This document shows positions 3,038 to 64,000 of a stretch of DNA of 64,000 bases, piece after piece (position 1 is the stretch's first letter; each line of letters begins with the position of its first letter). Below the pieces are notes generated by a model, which was not told where the DNA came from, did not search any database, and worked only from the letters and a program-made list of their open reading frames with translations. The stretch covers positions 1,549 through 65,548 of the forward strand of contig JBDGXC010000006.1 in assembly GCA_039584815.1 (NCBI GenBank), in the 5' to 3' direction. Made by a program: the position numbers and the translations under genes. This stretch comes from Gemmatimonadota bacterium. Lineage in GTDB: Bacteria; Gemmatimonadota; Gemmatimonadetes; Palauibacterales; Palauibacteraceae.

Positions 3038-3460
3038 CTATTTTATCAGCAGCACGGGGACGCGGGCCAGGATCGCGACCTGGTGGCTGAGGCTGGCGAA
3101 TCCGGAGGCCGGAGTCTCGGAGTCCACGCGCCTCGAGCTCATCACGATCAGCTCCGTCGAAAGCTCCTCCGCGTTGCCGAGGATGTGCCGAAGCCGGTTG
3201 CCGTACTCGATGCGCTGTATCACCGCGACGCCGCTCCGGGCCACGGGTTCGGTCAGCTCGTCGAGCTCTCCGGCTGCCCGGTCGTGAAGACGCTGATAGA
3301 AATCCTCCAGCTCCTCGAACGGAAGATCGAGCGTCTCGATCACGTGGAGCAGGGTCATTTCGCCGTCCGGGCCCGCCAGGCGGCCGGCTACCTCCACGGC
3401 ACGGCGGTTTCGATCGGACAGATCGACCGGGACGAGGATTCGCTGGAACATTTGAGACAA
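3038..3460 (-). CDS. Universal stress protein (UspA family)
   Basis: 140 aa. ILVPVDLSDRNRRAVEVAG...LLHV...VMSSRR...GSVSHQV match the Usp fold motifs. Confidence 0.8.
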   Translation of the reverse strand: MSQMFQRILVPVDLSDRNRRAVEVAGRLAGPDGEMTLLHVIETLDLPFEELEDFYQRLHDRAAGELDELTEPVARSGVAVIQRIEYGNRLRHILGNAEELSTELIVMSSRRVDSETPASGFASLSHQVAILARVPVLLIK

Positions 3461-4927: not shown

Positions 4928-6595
4928 ATGGTCTCGTCCCTCCAGATGCGACGGGGCAGCCACTGGCCGGAGGAGGTCCACGTGTCGGGACACGAGACCA
5001 GGAGGACGATCGCGCGAAAGGTCACCGACCCGAGCGAGGATCATCCCGGGCGCAGCGGGTTTCGCGGCCTGATGGCCGAGGTGCAGCGGGACAGCTACCG
5101 CAGGCTCGGCTGGATCGCGAGCGTGCTGGCCGGTCTCGGTATCGTCGTCCTCGCCGCGTATCTCCTGCTGCCCGCAGAGCACCAGGAACACGTCGGGATC
5201 GACATCCGGGCCCGACTCGCGCTCGTCGCGCTCGGCGGCACCGTGGCCCTCGTCACTCTGCTCCGCGATCTGCCGTCCCGCTGGTTCCCGGGCCTGGCGC
5301 TCCTGTTCGAGGTCGCCGTCGGAGCCGTGCTGGCGACCGAGTTCCTGTACTGGCACACGCTGGGCTCGGGAGCGGACTTCCTCCTCGGCGTCCCGCGCAC
5401 CACGCTGTGGGTCGTGTTCTTCGCCAACGTCGTCCCCCTGCGCCCCCGGGAGCACCTGCTCGGCGCAGGCCTCTCCACGGCATTCATTCTCATCTGGTTC
5501 GCGGTCGGAGGAGCGGCGGCGGCCGGGAACCTGGGTCCAGCCGCCGCGGAAGCCCTGTGGAGCCGCGGTCGGGAGCTCCTTCCGGGTCTCGTGCTGTCGG
5601 CCCTCGCGGCCAGTGCACTGGCGTACGTGTCCGCGCGCCGCGTATACGGACTGTCGCGCGCCCTGTCACGCGCGCGCAGGGTGGGCTCCTACGAGCTTAC
5701 CGAGCGGCTCGGCAAGGGAGGCATGGGAGAGGTATGGCGGGCCCGCCATCAGATGCTCGCCCGTCCGGCAGCGATCAAGCTCATCCGAAGCGACCGGACC
5801 GAGGGCACGAGCACGTCCGACGCAGAATACTACCTGGAGCGCTTCCAGCGTGAGGTGCAGGCGACGGCGCGTCTCCGATCGCCTCATACGATTCAGGTCT
5901 ACGACTACGGCATCACGCCGGACCGGGCCTTCTACTACGTGATGGAGCTGCTGGACGGGATCGACCTGGATCACTTCATCAAATCGTACGGCCCCATGCC
6001 AGCGGCGCGTGCCGTCCACGTCCTGCGGCACATGTGCCACTCTCTCGCCGAGGCGCACGACGCGGGCCTCATCCACCGGGATATCAAGCCGGCCAACGTC
6101 TTCCTGTGCCGCCAGGGACGGGACGTCGACCAGGTCAAAGTGCTCGACTTCGGGCTCGTGAAGGAGGTGGCCCGCCCGCAGTCTGCGATGCTTACACAGA
6201 TCGGCACGTTCGCCGGTACCCCAGCGTTCGGATCACCGGAGGCGGCGGCGGGAAAAGTCGACCAGCTGGGGCCGGCGGCGGACATCTATTCGGTGGGCTG
6301 CGTGGCGTACTGGCTGCTGACGGGCCAGACGGTGTTCAAGGCCGCGGGTGCCATGGAGATGCTCGCGTCTCACATCCGAGATGAGCCCGTCCCGCCATCC
6401 GAGCGGATCGAGCTGGAGCTTCCGCCGGAACTGGATCGGGTGATTCTGCGCTGCCTGGAGAAGGACCCGCAGACGCGCATCGGATCGGCGGACGAGCTGG
6501 ACGCCGATCTCGAACAGCTCCAGCGTACCTTTCCGTGGCCGGCCGAGACGGCGCGCGCCTGGTGGCTCGCGCATCGGCCGGATCCCGTCGCGTGA
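4928..6595 (+). CDS. Membrane-embedded sensor Ser/Thr protein kinase (polytopic N-terminal domain + Hanks-type kinase)
   Basis: Kinase subdomains are present: LGKGGMGEVWRA (Gly loop), AIKLI (Lys), HRDIKPANVFL (catalytic loop), DFGL, and GTPAFGSPE. About 230 aa of predicted TM helices precede the kinase. The true start may be downstream (MAEVQ, about 5072). Confidence 0.8.
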   Translation: MVSSLQMRRGSHWPEEVHVSGHETRRTIARKVTDPSEDHPGRSGFRGLMAEVQRDSYRRLGWIASVLAGLGIVVLAAYLLLPAEHQEHVGIDIRARLALVALGGTVALVTLLRDLPSRWFPGLALLFEVAVGAVLATEFLYWHTLGSGADFLLGVPRTTLWVVFFANVVPLRPREHLLGAGLSTAFILIWFAVGGAAAAGNLGPAAAEALWSRGRELLPGLVLSALAASALAYVSARRVYGLSRALSRARRVGSYELTERLGKGGMGEVWRARHQMLARPAAIKLIRSDRTEGTSTSDAEYYLERFQREVQATARLRSPHTIQVYDYGITPDRAFYYVMELLDGIDLDHFIKSYGPMPAARAVHVLRHMCHSLAEAHDAGLIHRDIKPANVFLCRQGRDVDQVKVLDFGLVKEVARPQSAMLTQIGTFAGTPAFGSPEAAAGKVDQLGPAADIYSVGCVAYWLLTGQTVFKAAGAMEMLASHIRDEPVPPSERIELELPPELDRVILRCLEKDPQTRIGSADELDADLEQLQRTFPWPAETARAWWLAHRPDPVA

Positions 6596-39660: not shown

Positions 39661-40683
39661 CTAGTCGTCCGGAGACACTGTCCACGTCCGGCCGCCGTAT
39701 AACAGATCCGCCAACCCCCGCCCCTCGGACTCGGGCTGCACCTGGGCAAGCACCTGACGATCGAAGGTGGGAGCCGGATCGTGATACAGCACCCCCACGG
39801 CCATCGGGAACGCGGGTGGCTCGAGGGCGGCCAGCATCGTGGCCAGCGTGCGGTTGGTGCTGTCGTGCACCACCACATCGGCTTCCGTGACCCCGTCTTC
39901 CCCGATCCTGACGACCTCCAGCGTCCAATTCGCCGGGTTCAGCCGCAGGCCGTTCTCGTCATCTCGCCCGAAGCGCAGAGGCTCACCGTGCGCGACGTGC
40001 AACTGCGCGTCCAACGCCGTCTCCTTGTCCGTGAAATCGGCGAACGTCTTGTCGTTGAACACGATACAGTTCTGAAATATCTCCACGAACGACGTCCCGG
40101 CGTGCGCGTGCGCCTGCTTGAGCATGTCCACGAGGTGCGTCTGGCTGATGTCGATGGAACGAGCCACGAAGCGCGCTCCCACCCCGAGGGCCATGGTGGC
40201 CGGGCTGATGGGATTGGCGACCGACCCGCGTGGCGTGGTCGGTGACAACGTGCCCCGCTTGGACGTCGGCGACACCTGCCCCTTGGTCAGTCCGTAGATC
40301 TCGTTGTTGAACAGGATGACGTTCAGATCGACGTTGCGGCGCAGGGCGTGCACGAGATGGTTGCCGCCGATGCTGAGGCCGTCTCCGTCCCCCGTGATCA
40401 CCCACACATCGAGGTCGGGGTTCGCCAGCTTGGTTCCCGTGGCGATGGCCGGCGCTCGCCCGTGAATCGTATGGAAACCGTACGTCGCCATGTAATACGG
40501 AAAGCGCGACGAGCAGCCGATCCCGGAGATGAACACGCTCTGCTCGCGCGGGACCTCGAGCTCGGCGAGCGTCTTCTGGATCGCCTTCAGGATCGCGTAG
40601 TCCCCGCAGCCCGGGCACCAGCGCACCTCCTGGTCGGACGCGAAGTCCTTCGGCTTGAGCTGCGGCAAAACGGAATGGCTCAC
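39661..40683 (-). CDS. korB: 2-oxoglutarate/2-oxoacid:ferredoxin oxidoreductase beta subunit (TPP-binding)
   Basis: WCPGCGDY, GIGCSSR, the TPP motif VITGDGDGLSIGGNHL and NNEIYGLTKGQ are present. GTG overlaps the korA stop by 4 nt. Confidence 0.85.
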   Translation of the reverse strand: MSHSVLPQLKPKDFASDQEVRWCPGCGDYAILKAIQKTLAELEVPREQSVFISGIGCSSRFPYYMATYGFHTIHGRAPAIATGTKLANPDLDVWVITGDGDGLSIGGNHLVHALRRNVDLNVILFNNEIYGLTKGQVSPTSKRGTLSPTTPRGSVANPISPATMALGVGARFVARSIDISQTHLVDMLKQAHAHAGTSFVEIFQNCIVFNDKTFADFTDKETALDAQLHVAHGEPLRFGRDDENGLRLNPANWTLEVVRIGEDGVTEADVVVHDSTNRTLATMLAALEPPAFPMAVGVLYHDPAPTFDRQVLAQVQPESEGRGLADLLYGGRTWTVSPDD

Positions 40684-51637: not shown

Positions 51638-51903
51638 GGCGGAACACCGTCGCCCCGGAACCTCCAGGGTCCCGGGGCGGCGGTGGCTCACCGCGAGCGC
51701 CGGTCTGCGGCTCGGCTCAGTCGGACGCCGCGATCGACTCGGCGGGCTCGTCCTCCAGTACCCTCACCTCGCCGAAGCCGAGGGCCCGCACGGGCTCTTC
51801 GATCTGGGAAAGATCTCCTACGACGACCCACGTCAGCTGCCCGGGCGCCCGGCGAACGCCGGGCGCCCCGCGATCGGCCACCCCTCGCGTGGCTCCGATC
51901 ACC

Positions 51904-54165: not shown

Positions 54166-54318
54166 GCAGGGAGGATCTCTGGCTCTGCCGGACGGACCCG
54201 CGCCGCTGGAGCAGGCGCCTGCCGCCGTGTGGGCAGGGCACAGCGCCCGGCGAGCCACCGCAGGCGCTATGCCCGTCAATCCCGAAGGAGTGGGCCCTCA
54301 ACCCAGGCCGGGTACCAA

Positions 54319-54759
54319 CTAGTCCTTGATCGGCACCATGACGTGCACGTAGGGCGTGTCCCTCCACATCACCCACGGCCCACCACTATCGGGGTGCGTC
54401 GGCAGGCCCGTCAGCATCTCGGCATCCGGCACCACGAGCATGAGGTGCGGGCCTCCGGGCGGAAGCCATTCATTGTCTGGTGTAGCCTCTGTGGCGTATG
54501 GGTCTACATTGCTTCCGCCCTCGGAACAGCAATTGAGCATGTACCCGAAGCCGGTGTCTCTTATCGTCGGCTCGGTCTTGCCCGTGTAAGCCTCGAGCCA
54601 ATTCATCCAGGGTGCGTCAAGACACATCGGCTGCTCGCCTGGAATGCACGTCCAGCCGTTCGTGCCCTCTCTGAGCACGTTTCCCTCTCCGTCCATGATC
54701 GTCGCATCCGCCGCTATGGAAGCCGGTGCAGCGCTCTCCGCGCTCGTGATCTGCTCCAT
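54319..54759 (-). CDS. Hypothetical Cys-containing protein (possibly 5'-truncated by frameshift; see findings)
   Basis: 146-aa ORF. In frame immediately upstream of the ATG is a signal-peptide-like h-region (AAFVLTGLSIGTTTLHAQE) preceded by a stop and lacking any start codon. Confidence 0.3.
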   Translation of the reverse strand: MEQITSAESAAPASIAADATIMDGEGNVLREGTNGWTCIPGEQPMCLDAPWMNWLEAYTGKTEPTIRDTGFGYMLNCCSEGGSNVDPYATEATPDNEWLPPGGPHLMLVVPDAEMLTGLPTHPDSGGPWVMWRDTPYVHVMVPIKD

Positions 54760-54815
54760 CGCGGCACACGGATTCTCTTGCGCATGGAGCGTCGTCGTTC
54801 CGATTGACAGGCCGG

Positions 54816-55049
54816 TCAGGACGAACGCGGCACGCTACCGTCGGGATTCTGTCTTACATGGAAGCTGAGATTCCTCCAGTTTCCAGCCGAGTTGACGTAA
54901 TGACCACTCCCGGTCACGACCGCTGTCTCGCCTCCGCTGGAAGCTTGAAGGCTCAGATCCGGCCCCACTACGGCCTCCATTGCGCTGTCGTCGCAGCTCA
55001 GGACGAGCGGCAGCAGAGCGAGCAGCGGGAGGAACACGAGGCGCTTCAC
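54816..55049 (-). CDS. Small lipoprotein (78 aa)
   Basis: GTG 55049 with GGAGG 6 nt upstream. Signal peptide plus lipobox VKRLVFLPLLALLPLVLSC. Confidence 0.4.
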   Translation of the reverse strand: MKRLVFLPLLALLPLVLSCDDSAMEAVVGPDLSLQASSGGETAVVTGSGHYVNSAGNWRNLSFHVRQNPDGSVPRSS

Positions 55050-55182
55050 AGCACACCTCCTTCGCAGGATGGGCGCGTTGCCGGAAGGGGGAATACCGGC
55101 GGGACTGTACGGTACAGCTGGTACGGCAGGTGTGGCGGACCAGCGGGGGAGGCTGACGAAGTGTAATCTAGTGCCTCGTCCA

Positions 55183-55210
55183 CCGCCGTGCGAGCAGAGC
55201 GCTGGGCGGG
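55183..55210 (+). repeat. Dispersed intergenic repeat, copy 1 (core CCGCCGTGCGAGCAGAGCG)
   Basis: Same-orientation match to copies at 55801, 56602, 58213, 63191 and 63781. Confidence 0.5.
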
Positions 55211-55316
55211 ACGTCGACCTGGCTTCTGTCCGCAGGAGACAACGGCTTTCGCATGTCCGGTTGAACGGGGCAAGCGGCCGGGCAGTGGTCTGAACAGGTG
55301 AAAGAGGATCCGTAAG

Positions 55317-55793
55317 GTGATGAAACCAGTACTGATCGGAGCGGTTGCCGGTGTGGTGGGCACTCTGATGATGGACGTATTGAACGCTGTGGGCGCCCGG
55401 ACCGGAATCATCACCCGGATAGACCACCGAATGATAGGGAGAGTATCGTGCGGATGGGTGCGGGGACGTTTCCTCTATGCGCATCCGGGAGACGTGCAAA
55501 ACGTTGCCAACGAACTGATCTACGGTTACGCCGCGCACTATCTCATCGGTATCCTTCTCGCGAGTGCGTACGTGGTCGGCTGGCATCTGTTGATCGGTGG
55601 ACCCACCTCCCTGGTTTGGGCCGTCGCGTACGGCGTTGCCACGACCGTGGCGGCGTACTTCTTCCTGCTTCCTTCCATCGGGCTGGGCGTATGCGGAAGA
55701 CGCTCACCTCACGGCATCAAGCTGCCCCTTTCCAGTCTGATCAACCACCTGTTCTATGGACTGGGCATCGCCGCGGGGATCGCACTGGTTTGA
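55317..55793 (+). CDS. DUF2938-like membrane protein
   Basis: 158 aa with 4 predicted TM helices. Reasonable start (ATGATGAAA) and coding periodicity. Confidence 0.5.
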   Translation: MMKPVLIGAVAGVVGTLMMDVLNAVGARTGIITRIDHRMIGRVSCGWVRGRFLYAHPGDVQNVANELIYGYAAHYLIGILLASAYVVGWHLLIGGPTSLVWAVAYGVATTVAAYFFLLPSIGLGVCGRRSPHGIKLPLSSLINHLFYGLGIAAGIALV

Positions 55794-55800
55794 CACACCC

Positions 55801-55830
55801 GTCAGCGTGCGAGCAAAGCGGAGCGACCAG
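55801..55830 (+). repeat. Dispersed intergenic repeat, copy 2 (CAGCGTGCGAGCAAAGCGGAGCG)
   Basis: Lies 8 nt after the DUF2938 stop and shares 17 of 19 core positions with copy 5. Confidence 0.5.
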
Positions 55831-55928
55831 CCTCCCACAGCAGGCCTTCGAGCCTTGGCGAGACAAACCGGGCGCTTCCAGTACTCGCGTGGCCGGAAGG
55901 GTGCGACTCCGGCTAGGGCTGATCGTCC

Positions 55929-56528
55929 TCAGGGTCGGGTTTCGCGAGGTCTTCCCCGATCAGAGCCGCCTCCGGTCGGGGTGATCGTCCCCTTCCACGT
56001 GCTAGTACGCATGGTCTCGCTGGAGTAGGTCCTGCTCGTCTGAGTCGACTGCTCAGCTACCAGGACCACGTAGTTCTCGCCATAGGCCTTGGCGCACCTT
56101 GGACAAGTGGTGTACCAGTAATAGAGCTTCGTCGGAGGACGGCCCCGTCTCTCCAGAAGGATCGACATTTCTCTGGCCCACTTGCTTGCCTTGCTGTAAG
56201 GCCCCTCGAACGGTTTCGTAAAGAAGGTGCCGGAGATGCGCTCCATCTGTGCACCCGGAACTTCCTTTGACACGGCGATGTACACGTTGGCACCCCAGAG
56301 CGAGTCTTCGTCACTGAGCATTAGGTGGTCAGGAACCAGGGCATCTGCGGCCTCGATACGCTCCGTGTTCTTCTTCATCACGCGACCGAAGTTCAAAGGC
56401 ACGTGGAACAGACTCCGCACACGGTCTCGGACGAAGAGCTTGTCCTGCCAGATGATCTCTTGTTCGTCCCACGGTGCGGGGTCGAATCGTGGACAGCAAC
56501 CGGTTTCGCTCTTCTCATTCATTGCCAC
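55929..56528 (-). CDS. Hypothetical cysteine-rich protein (GCCPRFDPAPWD ... CPRC motifs)
   Basis: The N-terminus MNEKSETGCCPRFDPAPWDEQEI and downstream YYWYTTCPRCAKAYGENYVVL suggest a metal-binding site. The C-terminal tail is low-complexity and may be over-extended. Confidence 0.45.
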   Translation of the reverse strand: MAMNEKSETGCCPRFDPAPWDEQEIIWQDKLFVRDRVRSLFHVPLNFGRVMKKNTERIEAADALVPDHLMLSDEDSLWGANVYIAVSKEVPGAQMERISGTFFTKPFEGPYSKASKWAREMSILLERRGRPPTKLYYWYTTCPRCAKAYGENYVVLVAEQSTQTSRTYSSETMRTSTWKGTITPTGGGSDRGRPRETRP

Positions 56529-56601
56529 CGCCTCCGCATTCAGGCCCGTCTGCCTTCAGCGACAGAGCCACACCTTCCTCAATATACAGGCGCTTGGTCG
56601 C

Positions 56602-56630
56602 CCGCCGCCGCGCGAGCAAAGCGCAGCGTC
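56602..56630 (+). repeat. Dispersed intergenic repeat, copy 3 (CCGCCGCCGCGCGAGCAAAGCGCAGCG)
   Basis: Intergenic between the Cys-rich gene start and the APC permease stop. Confidence 0.5.
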
Positions 56631-56689
56631 CGCCGAGGCGCTGGCTGGGAGATTGACTGCATCCCCGCCTACGCGTCGGGCCTGTTCCT

Positions 56690-58027
56690 TCATTCCCTCA
56701 CGCGGTAACGCACCGTGATCCACCCCGAGAGCCACAGGACGCCGAGCATGGCACCCGCACCGAGGGCCAGCGCCGGCTGCGTCCATACGACGACCGCCAG
56801 GACGAGGAAGTAGAGCAACAAGGTGGCAGCTGGTAACCACGGATACAGCGGAACCTTGAGCGGTCGCGCCAACCGCGGCTGAAGCCTACGAAGCCTGAAG
56901 ATCCCGCTCAGCACTACAAGATCAACCGTGATGGCGACGGTCATCATGAAGCGGATCAAGAACTCGAAGGTGCCGCTCACCGCCAGCCCGAGAATCAATA
57001 CTGTGACGAACATCAACGCCGGCCCCGGTGTGCCTCCGGCCCCGACTCTCGTGAAGTGCGACGGCGCCAGCCCGTCCCTGGCCAGACCGAACATGACTCG
57101 CGGCATCCCCAGAAAATTGACGTTCAGAGAGCTGAGCAGGATCACCAGACTGGCTACGGTGACGAGCGTTCCGGCCGCCGCCCCGAGAATCCCTCGCAGG
57201 GCATCCGCGGCCACCAGCGAGGAACCCGCCATTTCCTGAGGAGTGAGCGCAGCCAAGTATGCGACATTGAGCAGTAGATACAATCCGGCGACGGCGGCCG
57301 CTCCCCCGACGAGGATGCGGGGAAGGTTTCGCCCGGGGTTCTTCGTCTCCTCCGCCATCTTGGCCGCATCCTCCCAGCCGTAGTAGGCAAAAGCCACGGA
57401 CTGGTATGCCAGGGCGAAGCCAAGCAGGCCCGCCAATTCGGGGTCCACCTCCATCGTGGCACCGAATCCGCGACCGTCGCCGCCAAGCACTCCGGCGGCA
57501 CAGATCGCCAGAAGGACGAACACCTTGGCGACGGTGGAGATATTCTGGAAGCCCCGCCCCGTACGGAGACCCCGAGAATGAAGGACGAAGAACCCCATCG
57601 CCACGGCGGCGGCCAGCAACGGCACCGAACCCCGTCCCAGCAGCAGAACGAGATACTCGGCGATGACCACCGCTTTGGCCGCGCCGGAGAAAGCCCGTGT
57701 GACCAGGATCTCGGACCAGCCAGCGAGGAAGCCGACTTGCGGTCCGTAGGCCTCTCGCGCGTAGACGTACTTGCCGCCCGCCTCGGGCAGTGCGGCCGCC
57801 ATTTCGGCCAGCACCAGGGTGCTCAGAGCCACGACGACGCCGCCCAGGAACCACACGCCGAGAATGGCAAGCGGGTTGCCCAGGTATGCTGCGATCAGGC
57901 CCGGTGTACGGAGAATTCCGGCCCCGATGACCATCCCGACAGTGACGGCCAGGCCGTCCCGCACCCCCAGAATCCTCTGCAGCTCTCCAGGGCGCGGCTT
58001 CGCAGTCTCCTTCGAACGTGAGCTCAT
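56690..58027 (-). CDS. APC-superfamily amino acid/polyamine permease
   Basis: 445 aa with 12 TM. LAVTVGMVIGAGILRTPG matches the APC N-terminal consensus. Confidence 0.8.
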   Translation of the reverse strand: MSSRSKETAKPRPGELQRILGVRDGLAVTVGMVIGAGILRTPGLIAAYLGNPLAILGVWFLGGVVVALSTLVLAEMAAALPEAGGKYVYAREAYGPQVGFLAGWSEILVTRAFSGAAKAVVIAEYLVLLLGRGSVPLLAAAVAMGFFVLHSRGLRTGRGFQNISTVAKVFVLLAICAAGVLGGDGRGFGATMEVDPELAGLLGFALAYQSVAFAYYGWEDAAKMAEETKNPGRNLPRILVGGAAAVAGLYLLLNVAYLAALTPQEMAGSSLVAADALRGILGAAAGTLVTVASLVILLSSLNVNFLGMPRVMFGLARDGLAPSHFTRVGAGGTPGPALMFVTVLILGLAVSGTFEFLIRFMMTVAITVDLVVLSGIFRLRRLQPRLARPLKVPLYPWLPAATLLLYFLVLAVVVWTQPALALGAGAMLGVLWLSGWITVRYRVRE

Positions 58028-58212
58028 TCAGGACCGCCCCGTCCACTCATGTATTCACACATCTCTCTGTGTTCGTATCGCACCACCAATAAGACGCGTA
58101 GCGGTGGGGCTGCTGCATACTCGTCATTGCCGAGGCGGTCGCTGCCGTCCCTCGAAGACCGGTGCCTCCGTCCGCCGGGGATCGAGGTATGGCGAACGCA
58201 ACCGAGAGAACC

Positions 58213-58237
58213 CCGCCGTGCGACCAAAGCGCAGCCC
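58213..58237 (+). repeat. Dispersed intergenic repeat, copy 4 (CCGCCGTGCGACCAAAGCGCAGC)
   Basis: Lies in the 320-bp gap upstream of the APC permease. Confidence 0.5.
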
Positions 58238-58344
58238 CCGCAGTGCCGCCGCCGGGATGCGAGCCGTGGTGAGACCCGGGCGCCGCGAGACAGCCTTTGA
58301 CTCCCCGAGCGGGAGGCCTCCGAGGGAGTCCCGGCGGTTTTACT

Positions 58345-58638
58345 CTAGGACGTCACCTTCGCGAGGGCTTTTCGTAGATCGTCGGCGTTCATGACCGGCA
58401 CAAACTCGACTGCCGCGTCGAGATTCTGGAAGAGTGGTTCCGCGATCTGTGGAATCTGTGATGGATCAGCCATATCGAAGAACATCATTCCGGCGCGCTC
58501 TCCGTGCTCGGCCAGGAAGTACGCTGCCTCTGGCTCAAGTAGCTGGAGCAATGCCTCGATCGTCTGACCGACCGAGCCGTCCATGACTGCCTGGTTGCCC
58601 GTTTCAACTGGAACCGTCCATCTCAGCATCGTGCGCAT
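58345..58638 (-). CDS. Hypothetical small protein (about 98 aa)
   Basis: MRTMLRWTVPVETGNQAVMDGSVGQTIEALLQLLEPEAAYFLAEHGERAGMMFFDMADPSQIPQIAEPLFQNLDAAVEFVPVMNADDLRKALAKVTS is an alpha/beta-like small protein. Start uncertain. Confidence 0.3.
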   Translation of the reverse strand: MRTMLRWTVPVETGNQAVMDGSVGQTIEALLQLLEPEAAYFLAEHGERAGMMFFDMADPSQIPQIAEPLFQNLDAAVEFVPVMNADDLRKALAKVTS

Positions 58639-58861
58639 TTCGGCCTCCTCCGTCGTGAACTTGCGATCGTGGCGCGGATCAGCGTTGCCATCCCAATAAC
58701 GCCAAGCGGCTGGTTCGAGGTCAAGCGAAGTGCAGAGCATCTCGCTGGCTGCGAGTTGCCGGGCGCCCTGTGCGGAAGAGAAGGCTGCTGTAAAGGCAGG
58801 GCAGTAACAGAGCTGAGTGTAATGACCGGGCCGCTGCCGGCATTCGAGCCTCGGCGAGCGA

Positions 58862-59201
58862 CTACCGCCCTCTACCAGGTTTCGCCACGACGAACCGCTG
58901 CCCTCGCGCCGTCGGGCAGGGGACCTCTGCACTCACGCCCTCCGCCGCCACCTCAGCCACGAATCCCTCACACATCTCACCATCGCGGAAATGCATCGGG
59001 AACAGCACCGGCACATCGAATTCGCGAGCAAGGTGAACGGCCCGAGACACGTGAGGCCATCTGTGGCCCGGGAGTCCGGCGACGAACGCCACGTCGATTT
59101 GGCAAGACCAGCAGCGCGTCGCCGAGGCGAACCGCCCAGCCTGCATGGCCCAGGAACCATACGGTCGCCTGGTCGCCACTTTGAGCGGACACTGCAGTCA
59201 C
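58862..59201 (-). pseudogene. Remnant of an MBL-fold metallo-hydrolase gene (N-terminal about 30 aa and C-terminal about 70 aa in different frames; middle deleted)
   Basis: Frame A has MTAVSAQSGDQATVWFLGHAGWAVRLGDALLV (MBL beta-1/beta-2). Frame B has IDVAFVAGLPGHRWPHVSRAVHLAREFDVPVLFPMHF (MBL C-terminal His motif). Only about 340 bp in total. Confidence 0.4.
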
Positions 59202-59513
59202 CGGCGGCCGGGTGCTGGAGTCTCAGATCCTCTCCAGAGAGATCCCATGTTCGGGTTCTCGTCCGGTGACACCATCTTGATGGTCACGGAATCGCCCGCG
59301 AAAGTGAGCGCCCACGTGTACACGTCAGTGGCCTCACCAGGCGTTGTCGTGAGCGTAGTCCCGGTCTGTGACCACAGCCACTCGAAGGATACGGGAGTCT
59401 CGACGTCCTGATTCCACGGCTGAATCAAGACACCTGCGACACTCACGGTTCCGTCGTTCGCGAACGTCCAACTGTCGGTGACGATCCACTCGCCCGCGGA
59501 CGTGGTGAGGCCA

Positions 59514-59858
59514 TCAGTCCTGGCTGTCGGGCCACTCGAACTCGGGCGCCAACACGGCGTTCGCGTTCGTCGTGATGCGAAGACGGAGTTCCTTCAGGGG
59601 GCGGTAGTCGGGATCGTTCACGAAGTCGTGAACGGCCTGCTCGGACGGGAACCGCAGAACCACGACACCGTCGGCGGGCTCCCCCTGGAGGGCCTCGGTC
59701 TCGAAGGCGGCCACCAGTACCTCCGCGCCATGCTTCGCCAGGAAGGGCAGAACGGCGGGAACGTACTGTTCAGAATACGCCGTTTGATCCATGACGGTCT
59801 GTGTGAGAATGAAGTAAGCGGCCATCTTTGTCTCCTCGGTGAGCGCACCTTGGGCCAT
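59514..59858 (-). CDS. DUF1330-family protein
   Basis: MAAYFILTQTVMDQTAYSEQYVPAVLPFLAKHGAEVLVAAFETEALQGEPADGVVVLRFPSEQAVHDFVNDPDYRPLKELR matches the roughly 95-aa DUF1330 pattern. Confidence 0.5.
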   Translation of the reverse strand: MAQGALTEETKMAAYFILTQTVMDQTAYSEQYVPAVLPFLAKHGAEVLVAAFETEALQGEPADGVVVLRFPSEQAVHDFVNDPDYRPLKELRLRITTNANAVLAPEFEWPDSQD

Positions 59859-60026
59859 AGTCACCCCAGAATTGCTGTTTCGGGTCTGACCGGGGAACTG
59901 GCAATGTGGCCAACAGCCAGCTGGAGGCAATGAGGGGAGACCTGCACTCTCGGCCCTGAAGATTTCCCTGATCCGCGCCGTCGGGTCGTCCATAGCGACC
60001 GGGGTCCCGAAAGATAGATTGTATGC

Positions 60027-60848
60027 ATGAATCAGGAATGGAGTTTTCGACGGGAACTTCGGCCAAAGGACGTCCCGGGTTTGGTGCGGCTCGGTAATCA
60101 GGTAGCTGACGGTGGGTATGTAGTACCCCTCTGGATCGTGGAGTCAACGGATGTCCTGCTCACGCTGGGGATGGGTCGTGAGTGGACATTCGACGAAGAC
60201 GTTGTCCGGATACGGCCAGGCGTGTCGATCGTGGGTGTAGATCACAGCGTTCATGCTGCGTCTTTTCGATCGTTGTTGCATCGATCACAGTTGAAACAGG
60301 CGGTATTTCGGTTCCTTGGCCACACGTCCAAGGCGACCAAGTACGCAGCGCGAGTCGACGTCGCCCGGCTCTATCAGCGGTTGTTCACGGCTCCCAATGT
60401 TCATATCGAGAAAGCCGTTGCTTCTCACAGCTCGACGTCGACAGTCACGATCGACGAACTGTTCACCGTCGTGAGATCGGATCGACCGCACCGCGTCTTG
60501 TTTGCCATGGATATCGAGGGTGGCGAGTACGACGTGGTCGATGACATTCTCCGATATCATTCCGCGATCAATATGATCGTGACTGAGTTTCACTACATCG
60601 GACAACGTCTTGATGAGTTCGAGAGATCGATCACAAAGATAAAGAGGTCATTTGACATCGTGCATCTGCATGGAAACAACTGTGGACCGTACAATCACGA
60701 GCTCGACATTCCTGAGGTGGTTGAGATCACCTTCGTTCATCGATCGCTTATGCCACCGGACAGTCAACACTCCGCAGATCAGCGTCCACTCCCCGGGCTG
60801 GACGTACCGAATAAGCCAGGGTCACCGGATTACGTTCTTCACATTTGA
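60027..60848 (+). CDS. FkbM-family methyltransferase
   Basis: 273 aa. VLFAMDIEGGEYDVV and TEFHY match the FkbM SAM-methyltransferase core. GC is about 53%, against about 68% for the window. Confidence 0.65.
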   Translation: MNQEWSFRRELRPKDVPGLVRLGNQVADGGYVVPLWIVESTDVLLTLGMGREWTFDEDVVRIRPGVSIVGVDHSVHAASFRSLLHRSQLKQAVFRFLGHTSKATKYAARVDVARLYQRLFTAPNVHIEKAVASHSSTSTVTIDELFTVVRSDRPHRVLFAMDIEGGEYDVVDDILRYHSAINMIVTEFHYIGQRLDEFERSITKIKRSFDIVHLHGNNCGPYNHELDIPEVVEITFVHRSLMPPDSQHSADQRPLPGLDVPNKPGSPDYVLHI

Positions 60849-60949
60849 ACTGCCAGACACGCCCGAGGCGCTTCCGGCGAGCTAGTGATGTCTGTTTGGG
60901 CTGCCGCGAAAGCGTTTCCGCGTGGAGGCCCTGTTCTCCACTCTGCACT

Positions 60950-62253
60950 CTACGGTGGCGGCTGGGCCCGATAGTTGACCGTCGGGATCGTGCGTCTGGG
61001 AAAGGCGAAACCGGAGCCGAAGACGAACGTCCACCTGCTGCCGCTGACGGTTCCACCGACGTTGTACGCGAGGTCCATCCGTCCGGTCATTGCCACCGTG
61101 CTCAGGGCCGACCCCAGGCGTAAACCGACTCCGACGCTCCCACCGCTGCGTGGCTCCTGACCTTCGTACCAGGCTCCGCCGTAGTCAGGGAAGGCCCCGA
61201 ATCCGATCCCAACCAGATTGAGGAACTTGTCTACCGCGAAGTAGCGGTGCTCGATCGATGTCCACCACATCTTGTTGCCGACGAACGAGTGAGCCACCCA
61301 GCCACGCGGTGCGTTCTCGAACCCGAGGTCGAATTCGTCCCCCGGTTTCTGGTTCCACAGCCGTCCGACCTGCACCTGCACCGCCGTGGAGTGGCGTGTA
61401 GCCGGCTTATAGCCCGCAGCCAGACTGAAGACGACACGGCCGGAGTCCCTGGCCGCGCCGCCCCACTGGTAGTCTCCGTCGATCGCTGTCCAGGCCCATC
61501 CCCGGCCGCTCAATCCGCTATGACCACTCGATGCCTGCACTCTGATCCCTAATCCCGATCCCTGCCAGCCGAATGCGTCGGGGCCAGGGTGGTCGTGAGC
61601 CGAAGCCTGGCACTGAGGTCCAGGTCTTCGGTGCCGAAGCCGTTGGACTTCCGGAGCTGCTGGAACCAGATCTTGCTGATCTCCGCCCACGCGCTCACGG
61701 TCCCGTAAACCGAATCCTCGGCCATTTCGGTGGCCTCGGGCGACTGGAAGAACGATTCGTTACGTGCATCAACCGTCGCCCCCCAGCGCAGGTGGTCGCC
61801 TGTCGAGTGGCGACTGGCGAGGGCCGCCGTAAGGTTGTTGATGAACGCATCCCTTCGGTACGTAGTCGTATCCAGGACCACTCCGTCCGGGGTGTCCTCG
61901 GCCCGATACCGCAGCACATCCTGGTCCGCTCGCGACCCATCCCATTCGTAGCTCTCAGAGCTCTCGGTATTCCTGAATGGCCTGCCGAGGACCCAGTTCG
62001 CGTTCTTCCCGTCCGACATACCGGCATAGTTGAGCAGGAGGTCGATTTCCGACCCGAACATCCGATCGAGATCCAGAGTCGTGTTCAATCCGTGCCGGTC
62101 TATCTCTTTCACGTACGCGAGGTATACCTGGTTCCCGGTTCCCAGCAGGTTGACCTCATTGATCCCCAGAGTCCCAGTCCAATCGCCGTTCGAGGCGACC
62201 GCGAGCTTGAGCTTCGGCTTGAGGGTCCACCCGTCCCGCGTGACGACTCTCAC
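60950..62253 (-). pseudogene. Frameshifted, 5'-truncated paralog of the Omp85 gene at 46467-48125
   Basis: ORFs 61549..62253 and 60950..61690 overlap in different frames. Together they align with residues about 130-552 of the intact copy (WSTKPKFKFSIASTGDWTGTFGINE versus WTLKPKLKLAVASNGDWTGTLGINE; identical C-terminus FGSGFAFPRRTIP.VNYRAQPPP). There is no signal peptide or start. Confidence 0.6.
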
Positions 62254-62478
62254 GGGTCCTGCTCAGCCTCGTCGTGCTCAATCTCGTGCGCAACTCGGCC
62301 GATGCCATGGCCGAGGTCGGCCCCTCCCGCAGCCAGGCACCGGCTCAAGGGAGGACGGCGGACCCGGGCGTCCGGCACCCGGATCGCCTGTTTCCCTCGG
62401 GATCGGGAGCGGTGGAAGCACGCGCCCGACGGGCAGCGCCGCCGACAGACTCGTGGAGGATCCACGCGGGAAGGCAAC

Positions 62479-63088
62479 CGTGATTCGCTATCGACCCATC
62501 CTCGTTGCGCTCGGAGTCGTGTTTCTCGGCCTGGCTGGCTGTACCGACGACCCCGTACAGCCGGAATCCAAGCTGTTCGCCGTCAGTGGCTCGGTCTCGG
62601 GTCTCAGTGTGCCGGGTCTGTCCCTGCAGAACGATGGTGATTTTCTGACCATTACGACAAACGGCAGGTTCGAGTTCCCTACCCTTTTGGAGAATCGATC
62701 CAGCTACGACGTGCAGGTGTTTTCCCATCCGAATGGGAAGACGTGCGTGGTGGCGAACGGGAGCGGCACGATACTCGGAGGAGACGTGTCGAACATCCTC
62801 GTGACCTGTACCGACGACGCTTCTCAAACCACCTTCCTTGTGGGTGGAGACTGTGACTGCGACCTGACGGCGGATAATCCGCTCATCCTCAGCAACAACG
62901 GCAGCGATTTCCTCACGCTGAGCGGCGGTGGAGATTTCATCTTCGCCGAGCGGCTGCCTGACGGCGCCTCCTACGCGGTGGCCGTCGCCAGTCGGCCCAC
63001 GGGCCAGACGTGCTTTATCTTCGGAGGCAGTGGAAAGGTCTCGGGAGCGAACGTCACCGACGTAATGGTCAGCTGCCGGGATCTGTAG
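62479..63088 (+). CDS. Lipoprotein with two tandem about 70-aa repeats
   Basis: GTG 62479 with signal plus lipobox FLGLAGC. The repeats are LSLQNDGDFLTITTNGRFEFPTLLENRSSYDVQVFSHPNGKTCVVANGSG...VTC and LILSNNGSDFLTLSGGGDFIFAERLPDGASYAVAVASRPTGQTCFIFGGSG...VSC. Confidence 0.5.
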
Positions 63089-63190
63089 CCGTCGGCCGCA
63101 CTCGTTGTTCGCTCATGCAGGCTGTGGGCGTGAATGGTTGGAGGGGAATGCGGCCGATGCGATCCGGGCACTGGCCAGCAATTCCTATCG

Positions 63191-63235
63191 CGCGCCGTGC
63201 GAGCAAAGCGAAGCGCCCGGCGCGAACCGAGCGAG
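63191..63235 (+). repeat. Dispersed intergenic repeat, copy 5 (CGCGCCGTGCGAGCAAAGCGAAGCGCCCGGCGCGAACCGAGCGAG)
   Basis: The longest copy. It contains the inverted repeat CGCGCCG...CGGCGCG. Confidence 0.5.
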
Positions 63236-63412
63236 CCCCTACTACGCTTCCTGAGCCATCGGGAAGCCGGCATCCCGCCACGCGCCGACTCCTCCGTCCA
63301 GCACCTTGACGTTGGTCCAGCCTCGGTTCCTATACTCGGCCGCCCTACCGACGGCTGTGGCGTCGTGGAGTCAACCGCAGTAGAAGATCAATTCTCTGGC
63401 GGTGGACAGTAT

Positions 63413-63444
63413 AAGCGAAGCGCCCGGCGTGAACCGGGCGCTGG
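63413..63444 (+). repeat. Dispersed intergenic repeat, partial copy 6 (AAGCGAAGCGCCCGGCGTGAACCGGGCGCT)
   Basis: Shares the 3' half (AAGCGAAGCGCCCGGCG.GAACC) with copy 5. Forms a perfect 9-bp hairpin AGCGCCCGG-cgtgaa-CCGGGCGCT. Confidence 0.45.
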
Positions 63445-63477
63445 GTTGGCACTTACAGGTGATCCCCCGTCGTGGGG

Positions 63478-63708
63478 TCATGTTTCATGCTCTGGAATGC
63501 TGTACGCATTAAGGATTGTCGGCTTCGTCGTGATCCTTCCCTCAACGTACAGCGGCATCAATTCGTCTCTGTGGTCCTTCCTTTGGTAGTAGTGCACTGT
63601 ACCTGCGACGAGTGCATAGAGGCTTCCCATTACTGCGGCACACCCTCCACCCATGATCAGGATAAACTTACCCAGTAGTACCAGTGTTTCTACGGTTTCC
63701 GGTTCCAT
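63478..63708 (-). CDS. Hypothetical small membrane protein (76 aa) in low-GC patch
   Basis: MEPETVETLVLLGKFILIMGGGCAAVMGSLYALVAGTVHYYQRKDHRDEL... has two hydrophobic helices. GC is markedly lower than the flanks. Confidence 0.3.
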   Translation of the reverse strand: MEPETVETLVLLGKFILIMGGGCAAVMGSLYALVAGTVHYYQRKDHRDELMPLYVEGRITTKPTILNAYSIPEHET

Positions 63709-63780
63709 GTTGGGCTCGCCTCCGTCGCTTGTCGATACGTCCGGTCTTCTGCTTCATCAATAGTGCTCGGGTGCACCATT

Positions 63781-63820
63781 CCGCCGCCGTGCGAGCAGAG
63801 CAGGGCGCCCGGCGCGAAAC
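63781..63820 (+). repeat. Dispersed intergenic repeat, copy 7 (CCGCCGCCGTGCGAGCAGAGCAGGGCGCCCGGCGCGAAACC)
   Basis: Matches copies 1 and 5. A GTGCGAGC-containing hairpin (TGCGAGCttcttgGCTCGCA) follows at 63906-63925. Confidence 0.5.
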
Positions 63821-64000
63821 CAGACTCAAGCGGAAACGGGGAAGCCCTGGAAGACTCCCCCGCTCCGACGAGCCTTGCTCGGCTAGCTCCCAAAGGATAG
63901 CGGCACGGTGCGAGCTTCTTGGCTCGCAGCTCCATTGCCAGGACGTCGAGCAGTAGTGGCTCGCATCTCTACAATGCGTGCAAAACAAGCCGCGTCAACC

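Follow-up and report, generated by a model that had tools for sequence, protein, structure and literature searches.

What are the short repeats that lie between genes at one end of a 64,000-nucleotide stretch of a Gemmatimonadota genome, and how did they come to be there? The stretch (the window, below) is positions 1,549 to 65,548 of contig JBDGXC010000006.1 (assembly GCA_039584815.1, Palauibacteraceae). A first-pass annotation of the sequence had listed seven copies of a repeat in its last 9 kb, and offered several readings of them. We found that the repeats are a real family and that related elements mark the edges of blocks of DNA that differ from locus to locus. Judging from these comparisons, the element is most likely a site where a phage-type integrase inserts mobile DNA. 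It appears to be an undescribed junction element, specific to some lineages of Gemmatimonadota; we found nothing relevant to the motif in the searchable literature.

A clustered family of repeats in the window

We searched the whole window for the 17-mer core of the repeat, GCCGTGCGAGCAAAGCG, allowing up to 3 mismatches. There were 7 matches against 0.59 expected, and none of 100 shuffles reached 7. Six of the seven matches fall in 55185-63802 and share the + strand. The remaining one, on the - strand at 40536, has 3 mismatches and was recovered by neither nhmmer nor a covariance model.

The covariance model (R1) was made from 22 related copies and run over the whole window with filters off. 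It found eight copies at E≤4e-4, all on a single strand and all inside 54210-63830. A ninth copy, at 63984-64036, is cut by the end of the window; its full sequence, CAACCGTGCGAGGGAAGCGCCTGGCGTGAACCGGGCGCC, is given by contig L001 (Joint Genome Institute, JGI, 3300041083) and by contig L130 from a metagenome-assembled genome (MAG). From a repeat search came the degenerate copy (at 54222), the partial one at 63413, and a further motif, TTCGAGCCTTGGCGAG, which the longer copies have after the core. The total is nine copies rather than seven, counting the degenerate copy and the one at the window end. There are thus nine copies in 10 kb versus zero in the remaining 54 kb, which is core genome with dozens of intergenic regions. 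Across the array the GC content drops from 0.67-0.69 to 0.61-0.63 (last 8 kb of the window).

The next-best match of the model, at 51844-51874, scored 17.8 bits (E=0.019). It is a perfect GC palindrome, GGGCGCCCGG-CGAACG-CCGGGCGCCC, that resembles the hairpin of the element, lacks the core and lies outside the array.

Much of the first-pass annotation held up. All seven copies that it listed are present where it placed them, and their uniform orientation is borne out by the model, which puts 8/8 on one strand. Its statement that none occurs in the first 55 kb holds, the degenerate copy at 54210 being the one exception. It had raised the possibility that the copies might fail to align past the short core; the alignment of copies (A2) extends well past the 17-mer, through the hairpin module. 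It was also right that this is not an array of clustered regularly interspaced short palindromic repeats, as the spacing is irregular (207-4979 bp) and genes lie between the copies. Two points need to be changed. Gene polarity indicates that the functional reading is the reverse complement of the one it wrote, and the hairpin that it reported at 63906-63925 is only a partial core-like sequence, GCTCGCAC, within a spacer that has no open reading frame (ORF).

The family in related genomes

The annotation had overlooked how widely the family is spread in a clade of Gemmatimonadota. A search with the exact long-form pattern found it in three Gemmatimonadota MAGs. A metagenome scan with an 18-mer returned 120 loci (numbered with the prefix L), of which about 30 are true members; the others are chance matches to coding sequence that has no relation to the element. 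A common gene family (...GCACCGTGGCGCCGACATGGA...GGCAT; L013, L014, L016, L026, L027, L031, L036 and others), not related to the element, has the 18-mer, CCGCCGTGCGAGCARAGC, on its antisense strand close to the 5' end, so most raw k-mer matches are not family members. The closest named relative of a neighbouring protein is from Candidatus Palauibacterales.

In 293 kb of related loci the covariance model found 80 copies at E≤0.01; in five control loci (~71 kb in total) it found none. The copies within a locus usually share a strand: 8/8 in L003, 7/7 in L006, 10/10 in each of L084 and L130, 4/4 in L011, and 3/3 in each of L010, L028 and L095. L124 was the sole locus with mixed strands. Searches of plasmid, phage and viral collections gave marginal chance matches only.

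The families found among 99 proteins encoded next to the elements are mainly NTF2-like proteins of the SnoaL/DUF4440 type, cold-shock proteins, outer-membrane barrels and kinases. Small secreted or NTF2-like, cold-shock and outer-membrane proteins, together with pseudogenes, make up the contents between junctions, which is typical of accessory arrays.

Anatomy of the element and its relation to gene direction

We found that the element has a fixed order when read on the gene strand (- in the window). The stop codon of a gene is followed by a hairpin, the U-rich tract TTCGCTTT (variant TTTCGCTT), the core GCTCGCACGGCGGCGGGCGGG and promoter-like motifs; the start codon of the next gene comes about 60-120 nt past the core. 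The outer stem of the hairpin is GC-rich, 9 bp long (AGCGCCCGG/CCGGGCGCT), and common to the short and long forms. The short form has a 6-nt loop, TTCACG. In the long form (54 nt), a 36-nt inner hairpin, GTCTCGCC-AAGGCTCGAATGCCTGC-GGCGG, is inserted between TT and CACG.

The invariant part is not the hairpin. It is the unpaired block 3' of it, GCTCGCACGGCGGCGGGCGGG(AT), of 21-24 nt, and in the alignment of copies conservation forms a single continuous 24-nt block, TGCTCGCACGGCGGCGGGCGGGAT, the left edge of which is sharp. Around this core, several combinations of left modules (L1, L2, other) and right modules (R1, other) are found. Some copies have another hairpin, GGGGCNGC...GCNGCCCC, in place of the first, and others consist of the core only.

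The orientation of the element is tied to the direction of the genes. On the 3' side of the core, 36 of 49 near neighbours are genes on the sense strand of the element, with the start codon a median of 85 nt away; on the 5' side of the hairpin, 33 of 48 near neighbours are genes that terminate there.

We considered the possibility that the element is a structured non-coding or cis-regulatory RNA, such as the 3' end of a small RNA, a processing site or a leader. Pairing in the hairpin is preserved at 90.9% across the 22 copies versus 35-51% for slid controls, and a fixed U·G pair, like several G·U changes on one side only, is as expected if the gene strand folds. A hand-curated count of G·U against A·C pairs (~8 to 4) also favoured the gene strand, although this count is suggestive only. 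However, covariation was not above that in shuffles: one pair changes on both sides, and 265/500 shuffles have one as well. Fold z-scores of single copies were insignificant in 7/8 folded regions, the exception being the perfect hairpin at 63413, and the most conserved part of the element is unpaired. Rfam families gave no match in the window at the gathering score. In 46 kb of the loci with the best copies, searched at E≤1, there were two matches to the tRNA model and one chance match to a plastid 5' untranslated region (5'UTR) family, none at the element. The hairpin is a conserved palindrome, and the covariation test shows nothing beyond that. We regard an RNA function of this kind as very improbable. 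A resemblance to the 5' end of a group II intron (GTGCG) was also followed and dismissed, as there were no matches to intron RNA or reverse transcriptase.

Blocks of homology end at the core

We found that DNA next to the element behaves as blocks whose ends are the elements themselves. A cold-shock gene cassette at L095 73-660 matches L010 546-1109 with 83.5% identity; both of its ends lie in elements and the flanks are unrelated. The cold-shock gene together with its 5'UTR follows the core in five loci, where the upstream neighbours differ. A 58-aa ORF (L010 vs L057) and the 5' end of a 397-aa gene (L028 vs L011) behave in the same way.

The most telling point is the boundary of an integrase island at the core. 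Two integrases, P0121 (L022/L104) and P0122 (L139/L140/L143), are 76% identical and belong to Pfam Phage_integrase and PHROG 1. Each is encoded at the end of an island of >10 kb that carries primase/helicase-like genes, and the two are in different contexts. On the 3' side of the integrase gene there are a 54-aa DNA-binding ORF, an arm with direct repeats (AAAGTGAC, twice), a tRNA-like remnant, and then the core. L139 6777-8812 and L104 203-2242 are 79.6% identical over 2043 nt, and the homology ends exactly at the last base of the core. Past this end, one locus of the pair has the L1 hairpin and the other has the L2 hairpin. The same island arm is found 3' of the core in three further loci, and an integrase fragment of the P0121/P0122 type is present in L011.

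Distant homologues of the P0121/P0122 integrase adjoin genuine tRNA genes, and tRNA genes are the classical targets for attachment (att) sites. Near cores there are also tRNA-like 3' halves (weak Rfam tRNA match, 24 bits) at L084 8930-9020, L011 ~14080, L007 ~7670 and L071 7060-7150. They are preceded by direct repeats, GGTGACA-N5-GGTGACA; the one in L071 is a reverse copy after a truncated integrase gene. These halves look like remnants of tRNA-targeting islands within the arrays. A tRNA or transfer-messenger RNA (tmRNA) gene was rejected as the anchor of the array, as the window has neither and the tRNA genes of related loci are not adjacent to elements.

Based on these comparisons we suggest that the repeats are att-type recombination junctions that build integron-like arrays of accessory cassettes, with the hairpin doubling as a terminator; we put the chance that this is correct at about even. 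The core would be an att-type site, and phage-type tyrosine integrases encoded on separate islands in the same lineage would recombine circular DNA into an existing core. Each insertion would leave a duplicated core, and serial insertions would then give an array with a single orientation. From one end to the other, a unit would comprise a right half-core, a promoter and 5'UTR, a gene, a hairpin, and then the left half-core of the following junction. Units mostly have no integrase of their own, and their movement would be in trans, like that of integron cassettes or cis-mobilizable elements (CIMEs). The hairpin with its U-rich tract (UUCGCUUU) would probably terminate transcription of the upstream cassette, and each cassette would have its own promoter just past the core. 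Of the readings offered by the first-pass annotation, "recombination scars" comes nearest to this one, since homology blocks of both cassettes and islands end at the core.

Several observations weigh against recombination at the core by such integrases. We found no integrase in the window, and no integrase or other recombinase, nor any further copy of the element, within 10 kb past its end. Only one junction of the integrase island was seen: its second core was found neither within 10 kb upstream of the integrase gene (L143) nor in the 10.2-kb contig L022, these contigs ending short of the far end of the island. We saw no obvious inverted binding arms that would flank a central region of the core. 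Of the neighbouring genes, about 30% are antisense to the element. The array in the window has the same genes in the same order in 4 MAGs, with no gain or loss of a cassette seen here; L130, from the one MAG aligned, is 99.9% identical to the window over 14 kb. Orthologues of the DUF2238 gene at the end of the array (80-84% identity) are in unrelated neighbourhoods, and among them we found no pair of a filled and an empty site; the orthologue in L136 is inside a different array. The integrase may also exploit a pre-existing, abundant repeat as its target, in which case the arrays are not its making, and homologous recombination between repeats of 40-90 bp could reshuffle the cassettes.

Regulatory readings of the element

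The main rival, which we consider unlikely but a serious contender, is that the element is a regulatory module propagated without a dedicated recombinase. The hairpin and TTCGCTTT would be a terminator, the core would be a promoter-proximal or operator site, and the module would have spread by duplication, gene conversion and homologous recombination, as a "mobile promoter/terminator". The tie between the orientation of the element and gene direction, and the short distance from core to start codon, are as expected for such a module. So is the finding that paralogous families (Ser/Thr kinases, SnoaL-like proteins) carry the element together with common 5'UTRs.

Motifs near the core also fit a regulatory role. 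At least 8 copies have GGGATG at the end of the core and then N-TAnnnT, which is like an extended -10 element; other copies have TTGAC 2-6 nt past the core, or TATATTGAT slightly further on. That such motifs (GGGATGnTAnnnT, or the TTGAC) overlap or adjoin the right end of the core counts against a purely recombinational role and keeps regulation in play. However, sigma-70 promoter and terminator scans showed no enrichment over shuffles, and in L136 a good promoter, TTGACA-N17-TATCTC, lies 40 nt downstream of the core rather than inside it.

The terminator features are mixed. The stem is strong; with 5 U in 8 nt, the tail, UUCGCUUUGCU, is a borderline case. A simple terminator scan flagged two copies on the gene strand (63233-63214 (-) in the window and L003 5155-5172) and did not flag most others. 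The suggestion in the first-pass annotation of terminator sites is thus plausible for the hairpin and U-rich tract, but on the strand opposite to the one it had read.

Other findings are harder to reconcile with a regulatory module. Conservation is in one continuous 24-nt block and not in two boxes with a free spacer. Some copies face antisense genes or spacers without an ORF (55806 and 63193 in the window; spacings of 207-385 bp). Not one copy is among the dozens of intergenic regions in the 54 kb of core genome, and the boundary of an integrase island of >10 kb coincides with the edge of the core. The continuous block, and the copies at places where no gene follows, also make a shared operator, as had been proposed, a poor fit, though they do not eliminate it.

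The 5'UTRs of several cassettes have CCCTCCT(C/G) boxes (L093 ~3120-3230, L008 ~6040-6160, L021 ~975-1030, L088, L075 and L003). By their sequence, these boxes could pair with an AGGAGG ribosome-binding site, and may be translational control hairpins common to otherwise unrelated cassettes.

Selfish repeats

A selfish repeat would insert itself, and would pile up in non-essential DNA. It might do so as the single-stranded hairpin substrate of an HUH-type enzyme such as a repetitive extragenic palindromic (REP)-associated tyrosine transposase (RAYT), or as a miniature transposon; REP sequences, miniature inverted-repeat transposable elements (MITEs) and palindrome-associated transposable elements (PATEs) are repeats of this kind. 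A hairpin followed by a conserved single-stranded tail does recall REP sequences or the ends of IS200/IS605. The make-up of the element is modular (a short form, a long form and further hairpin modules); some intergenic regions have differing combinations of hairpin modules, and there are hairpin-only copies at 63413 and 51844 in the window and at L071 5636.

However, we saw no terminal inverted repeats and no target-site duplications in ~60 copies inspected with their flanks. The ends of the element are not inverted repeats of each other, and we rejected a MITE on these grounds. No Y1/RAYT or other transposase recurs near the elements: Y1_Tnp is not among the 25 families listed for the 99 neighbour proteins, which include a single rve domain. 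The absence of Y1_Tnp, the direct-orientation arrays and the confinement of copies to the array (0 in 54 kb of core genome vs 9 in 10 kb) led us to reject a REP/RAYT system also, and we found no locus that differed by the element alone. The suggestion of REP/MITE-like elements in the first-pass annotation is therefore poorly supported, and we think a selfish repeat of any of these kinds improbable.

More broadly, the element is like REP sequences and bacterial interspersed mosaic elements (BIMEs), RAYT-associated mosaic repeats and "mobile promoters" in being short, GC-rich, hairpin-forming, modular and intergenic, with possible effects as a terminator or promoter. It differs from them in being confined to accessory arrays, in having a polarity that follows the genes, in the lack of inverted pairs and of any RAYT found, and in marking the edges of cassettes and islands.

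Comparison with integrons and other arrays

The array resembles a cluster of attC sites lacking integron-integrases (CALIN), that is, a canonical integron cassette array without its integrase in which the repeats would be the attC sites. Arrays in one orientation, made mostly of single, small accessory genes, with a site downstream of each gene and no adjacent integrase, are common to both, as is a GC content below that of the surrounding genome. The site itself is also attC-like: it is an imperfect hairpin with a variable terminal part, similar across the copies within a lineage, and it lies downstream of the cassette ORF in a single orientation.

We found none of the defining features of integrons. 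A scan of the whole window on both strands for RYYYAAC and GTTRRRY boxes 45-150 nt apart gave one pair per strand and none past 54000, so there is none in the array, and the consensus element has no AAC/GTT boxes at the ends of the stem. The conserved part is the unpaired 21-24-nt tail 3' of the hairpin, and not the R''/R' boxes of attC. A tblastn search with IntI1 gave no match in the window or in most arrays. The IntI matches that it gave in L018 and L116 were rejected, being generic Xer or phage-type recombinases and not IntI; the L116 locus has a GC content of 54%, and chance probably accounts for its 23-nt match. P0121 and P0122 have no match to the NCBIfam integron-integrase models, and the recombinases linked to the arrays are phage-type integrases on islands. 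The cassettes appear to have their own promoters, with promoter-like motifs past the core, and ~30% of the genes are antisense. With attC boxes and IntI both looked for and absent, the array is not a member of the integron family; we hold the chance that it is a CALIN to be slight in the extreme.

The recombinase gene in L018 (9395-10555, + strand) encodes an Xer/IntI-like tyrosine recombinase. The gene is 2.7 kb away from an element and converges with the cassettes. The protein scores 79 bits with XerA_Arch and 60 bits with the integron-integrase model TIGR02249, both far under the cut-offs.

Arrays can also grow by tandem accretion at att sites. Examples are the accretion and mobilisation of integrative and conjugative elements (ICEs) and CIMEs in Streptococcus, the composite staphylococcal cassette chromosome (SCC) elements SCCmec and pseudo-SCC at rlmH, and tandem islands at tRNA genes. 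These systems are like the arrays described here in that direct repeats of an att core part successive units, most units lack a recombinase and could be mobilised in trans, and an integrase-bearing element has the same junction. They differ in that the units here are as small as 0.2-1.6 kb and often have a single gene, and the core is attached to a conserved hairpin. Arrays are also at several loci per genome and not at one anchor gene; for the array in the window we identified neither an anchor gene nor a tRNA.

On Acinetobacter plasmids, pdif modules are genes flanked by XerC/D sites, which are 28-bp, AT-rich and of alternating orientation. The likeness is that of small gene modules bounded by short recombination sites and independent of integrons. 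In contrast, the sites here are GC-rich, are in direct orientation, are accompanied by a hairpin and show no link to Xer.

Taken together with these comparisons, a broader claim may be ventured. The Gemmatimonadota may have an integron-independent form of cassette capture, in which phage-type tyrosine integrases, encoded on separate islands and working in trans, use a 21-24-nt core to insert and reshuffle single-gene cassettes that bear a promoter and end in a conserved hairpin, giving integron-like arrays at several loci per genome. We put this forward tentatively, as a reading that is less likely than not.

Copies and cassettes in the window

On the gene strand (-) the array is read from the window end toward lower coordinates; all copies below are on the - strand. 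The ninth copy has its in-window part at 63984-64000, which ends with the 5' arm of the hairpin (reverse complement of L001 660-705; L130 3992-4044, 31.4 bits with the covariance model). The break of contig L001 falls between two copies, a sign that the repeats may fragment assemblies. Past the window end (L130 1-4000; L001) are genes for a Na+/H+ exchanger with a TrkA_N domain, a baeRF_family10 protein and an Rrf2-type regulator.

The copy at 63772-63830 (39.4 bits; not in the seed of the model) lies ~66 nt upstream of the start of a gene for a 76-aa hydrophobic membrane protein (63478-63708, -), for which the exact protein is on record and which has no Pfam match. Next is the partial copy at 63413-63442 (37.3 bits, model positions 3-38 only), a perfect 9-bp hairpin, AGCGCCCGG/CCGGGCGCT, followed by TTCGCTT (fold z-score -2.35). 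In place of the core it has a truncated rhodanese coding sequence: the hairpin and TTCGCTT are joined to the middle of the rhodanese gene, with the break exactly at the left edge of the core. A fusion at this edge fits the recombination-junction picture. The C-terminal rhodanese fragment (63243-63400, -; Pfam PF00581, E 9e-5 by conceptual translation) has an in-frame stop and lies between the junctions at 63413 and 63191. The latter is the short-form copy at 63180-63237 (53.4 bits; in the seed), with hairpin, TTCGCTTT and core, and is the one flagged by the terminator scan.

There follows a 4.9-kb stretch without an intact junction (58345-63088). Gene calls and domain searches gave a DUF3303-like gene (-), a DUF1330 gene (-), an FkbM methyltransferase-like gene (+), two ORFs at 60950-62253 (-) and a 202-aa ORF (+). 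Several of these genes look decayed. The pair at 60950-62253 (196 aa and 234 aa, no family assigned) and the FkbM-like gene at 60027-60848, with a low third-position GC (0.61), are split or truncated and are probably pseudogenes. At 58831-58858 there is a fragment of the inner hairpin, TTCGAGCCTCGGCGAG, without a core (repeat family D3), which is probably a decayed junction.

The long-form copy at 58201-58286 (44.2 bits; in the seed; alignment A2) separates the DUF3303-like gene from a gene for an amino-acid permease (56690-58027, -; Pfam PF13520, E 1e-50). Between the permease stop and the start of a hydrolase gene, which is ~75 nt past the core, is the copy at 56593-56644 (38.7 bits; not in the seed). 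The hydrolase is a Bact_hydrolase family protein (55929-56528, -; Pfam PF20603, E 3e-64). The next copy, at 55790-55878 (53.4 bits; in the seed; alignment A2), is a long form with a ~54-nt imperfect hairpin; its core breaks off after GCTCGCACG, directly against the stop codon of a gene for a DUF2938 membrane protein (55320-55793, +; Pfam PF11158, E 2.4e-22). This gene, the FkbM-like gene and the 202-aa ORF are antisense to the element; the remaining genes of the array are sense.

The copy at 55171-55236 (25 bits, E 4e-4; found also by nhmmer and the core scan) has a degenerate hairpin module and the core GCTCGCACGGCGG, with CCGCCGTGCGAGC on the + strand at 55183-55195. Beyond it are ORFs of 146 aa and 77 aa (54319-55049, -; L130 gene calls and protein clustering), which probably represent a split pseudogene of a secreted-protein family that adjoins elements in 7 loci. 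The last junction of the array is the degenerate copy at 54210-54270 (41.7 bits, E 5.5e-8; repeat family D1), with the core GCCCACACGGCGG, 45-57 nt past the stop codon of the DUF2238 gene.

Related loci have a second repeat family, module X (GACCGGCGCTCT[C/G]AGGCGCTCAGC..CGCACCCCCACCCTCCACCGGGACC; L084 6095-6140 and 7745-7812, L022 9860-9910). In L084 it flanks a 461-aa gene; L022 has the same tRNA-Arg(cct) and module X without that gene between them, so that here too a cassette seems to be present in one locus and absent from another. Module X is also 3' of cores in L084_607, L118 and L011_9432.

Implications for accessory genes in Gemmatimonadota

By the textbook account, it is through integrons that bacteria stockpile single-gene cassettes. 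To our knowledge, few cassette systems independent of integrons have been described, and these are mostly clinical (pdif modules, SCC arrays). The consensus of the element is a simple marker for hot spots of accessory genes in Gemmatimonadota MAGs, and the core and the P0121/P0122 integrase are a testable pair of substrate and enzyme. If the rival reading is true, the element would still be an undescribed, lineage-specific terminator/promoter module that is useful for annotation. If phage-type integrases do assemble cassettes by way of the hairpin and core, tools that rely on attC, such as IntegronFinder, would be blind to such arrays, and a poorly studied environmental phylum would have evolved a second solution to the stockpiling of genes.

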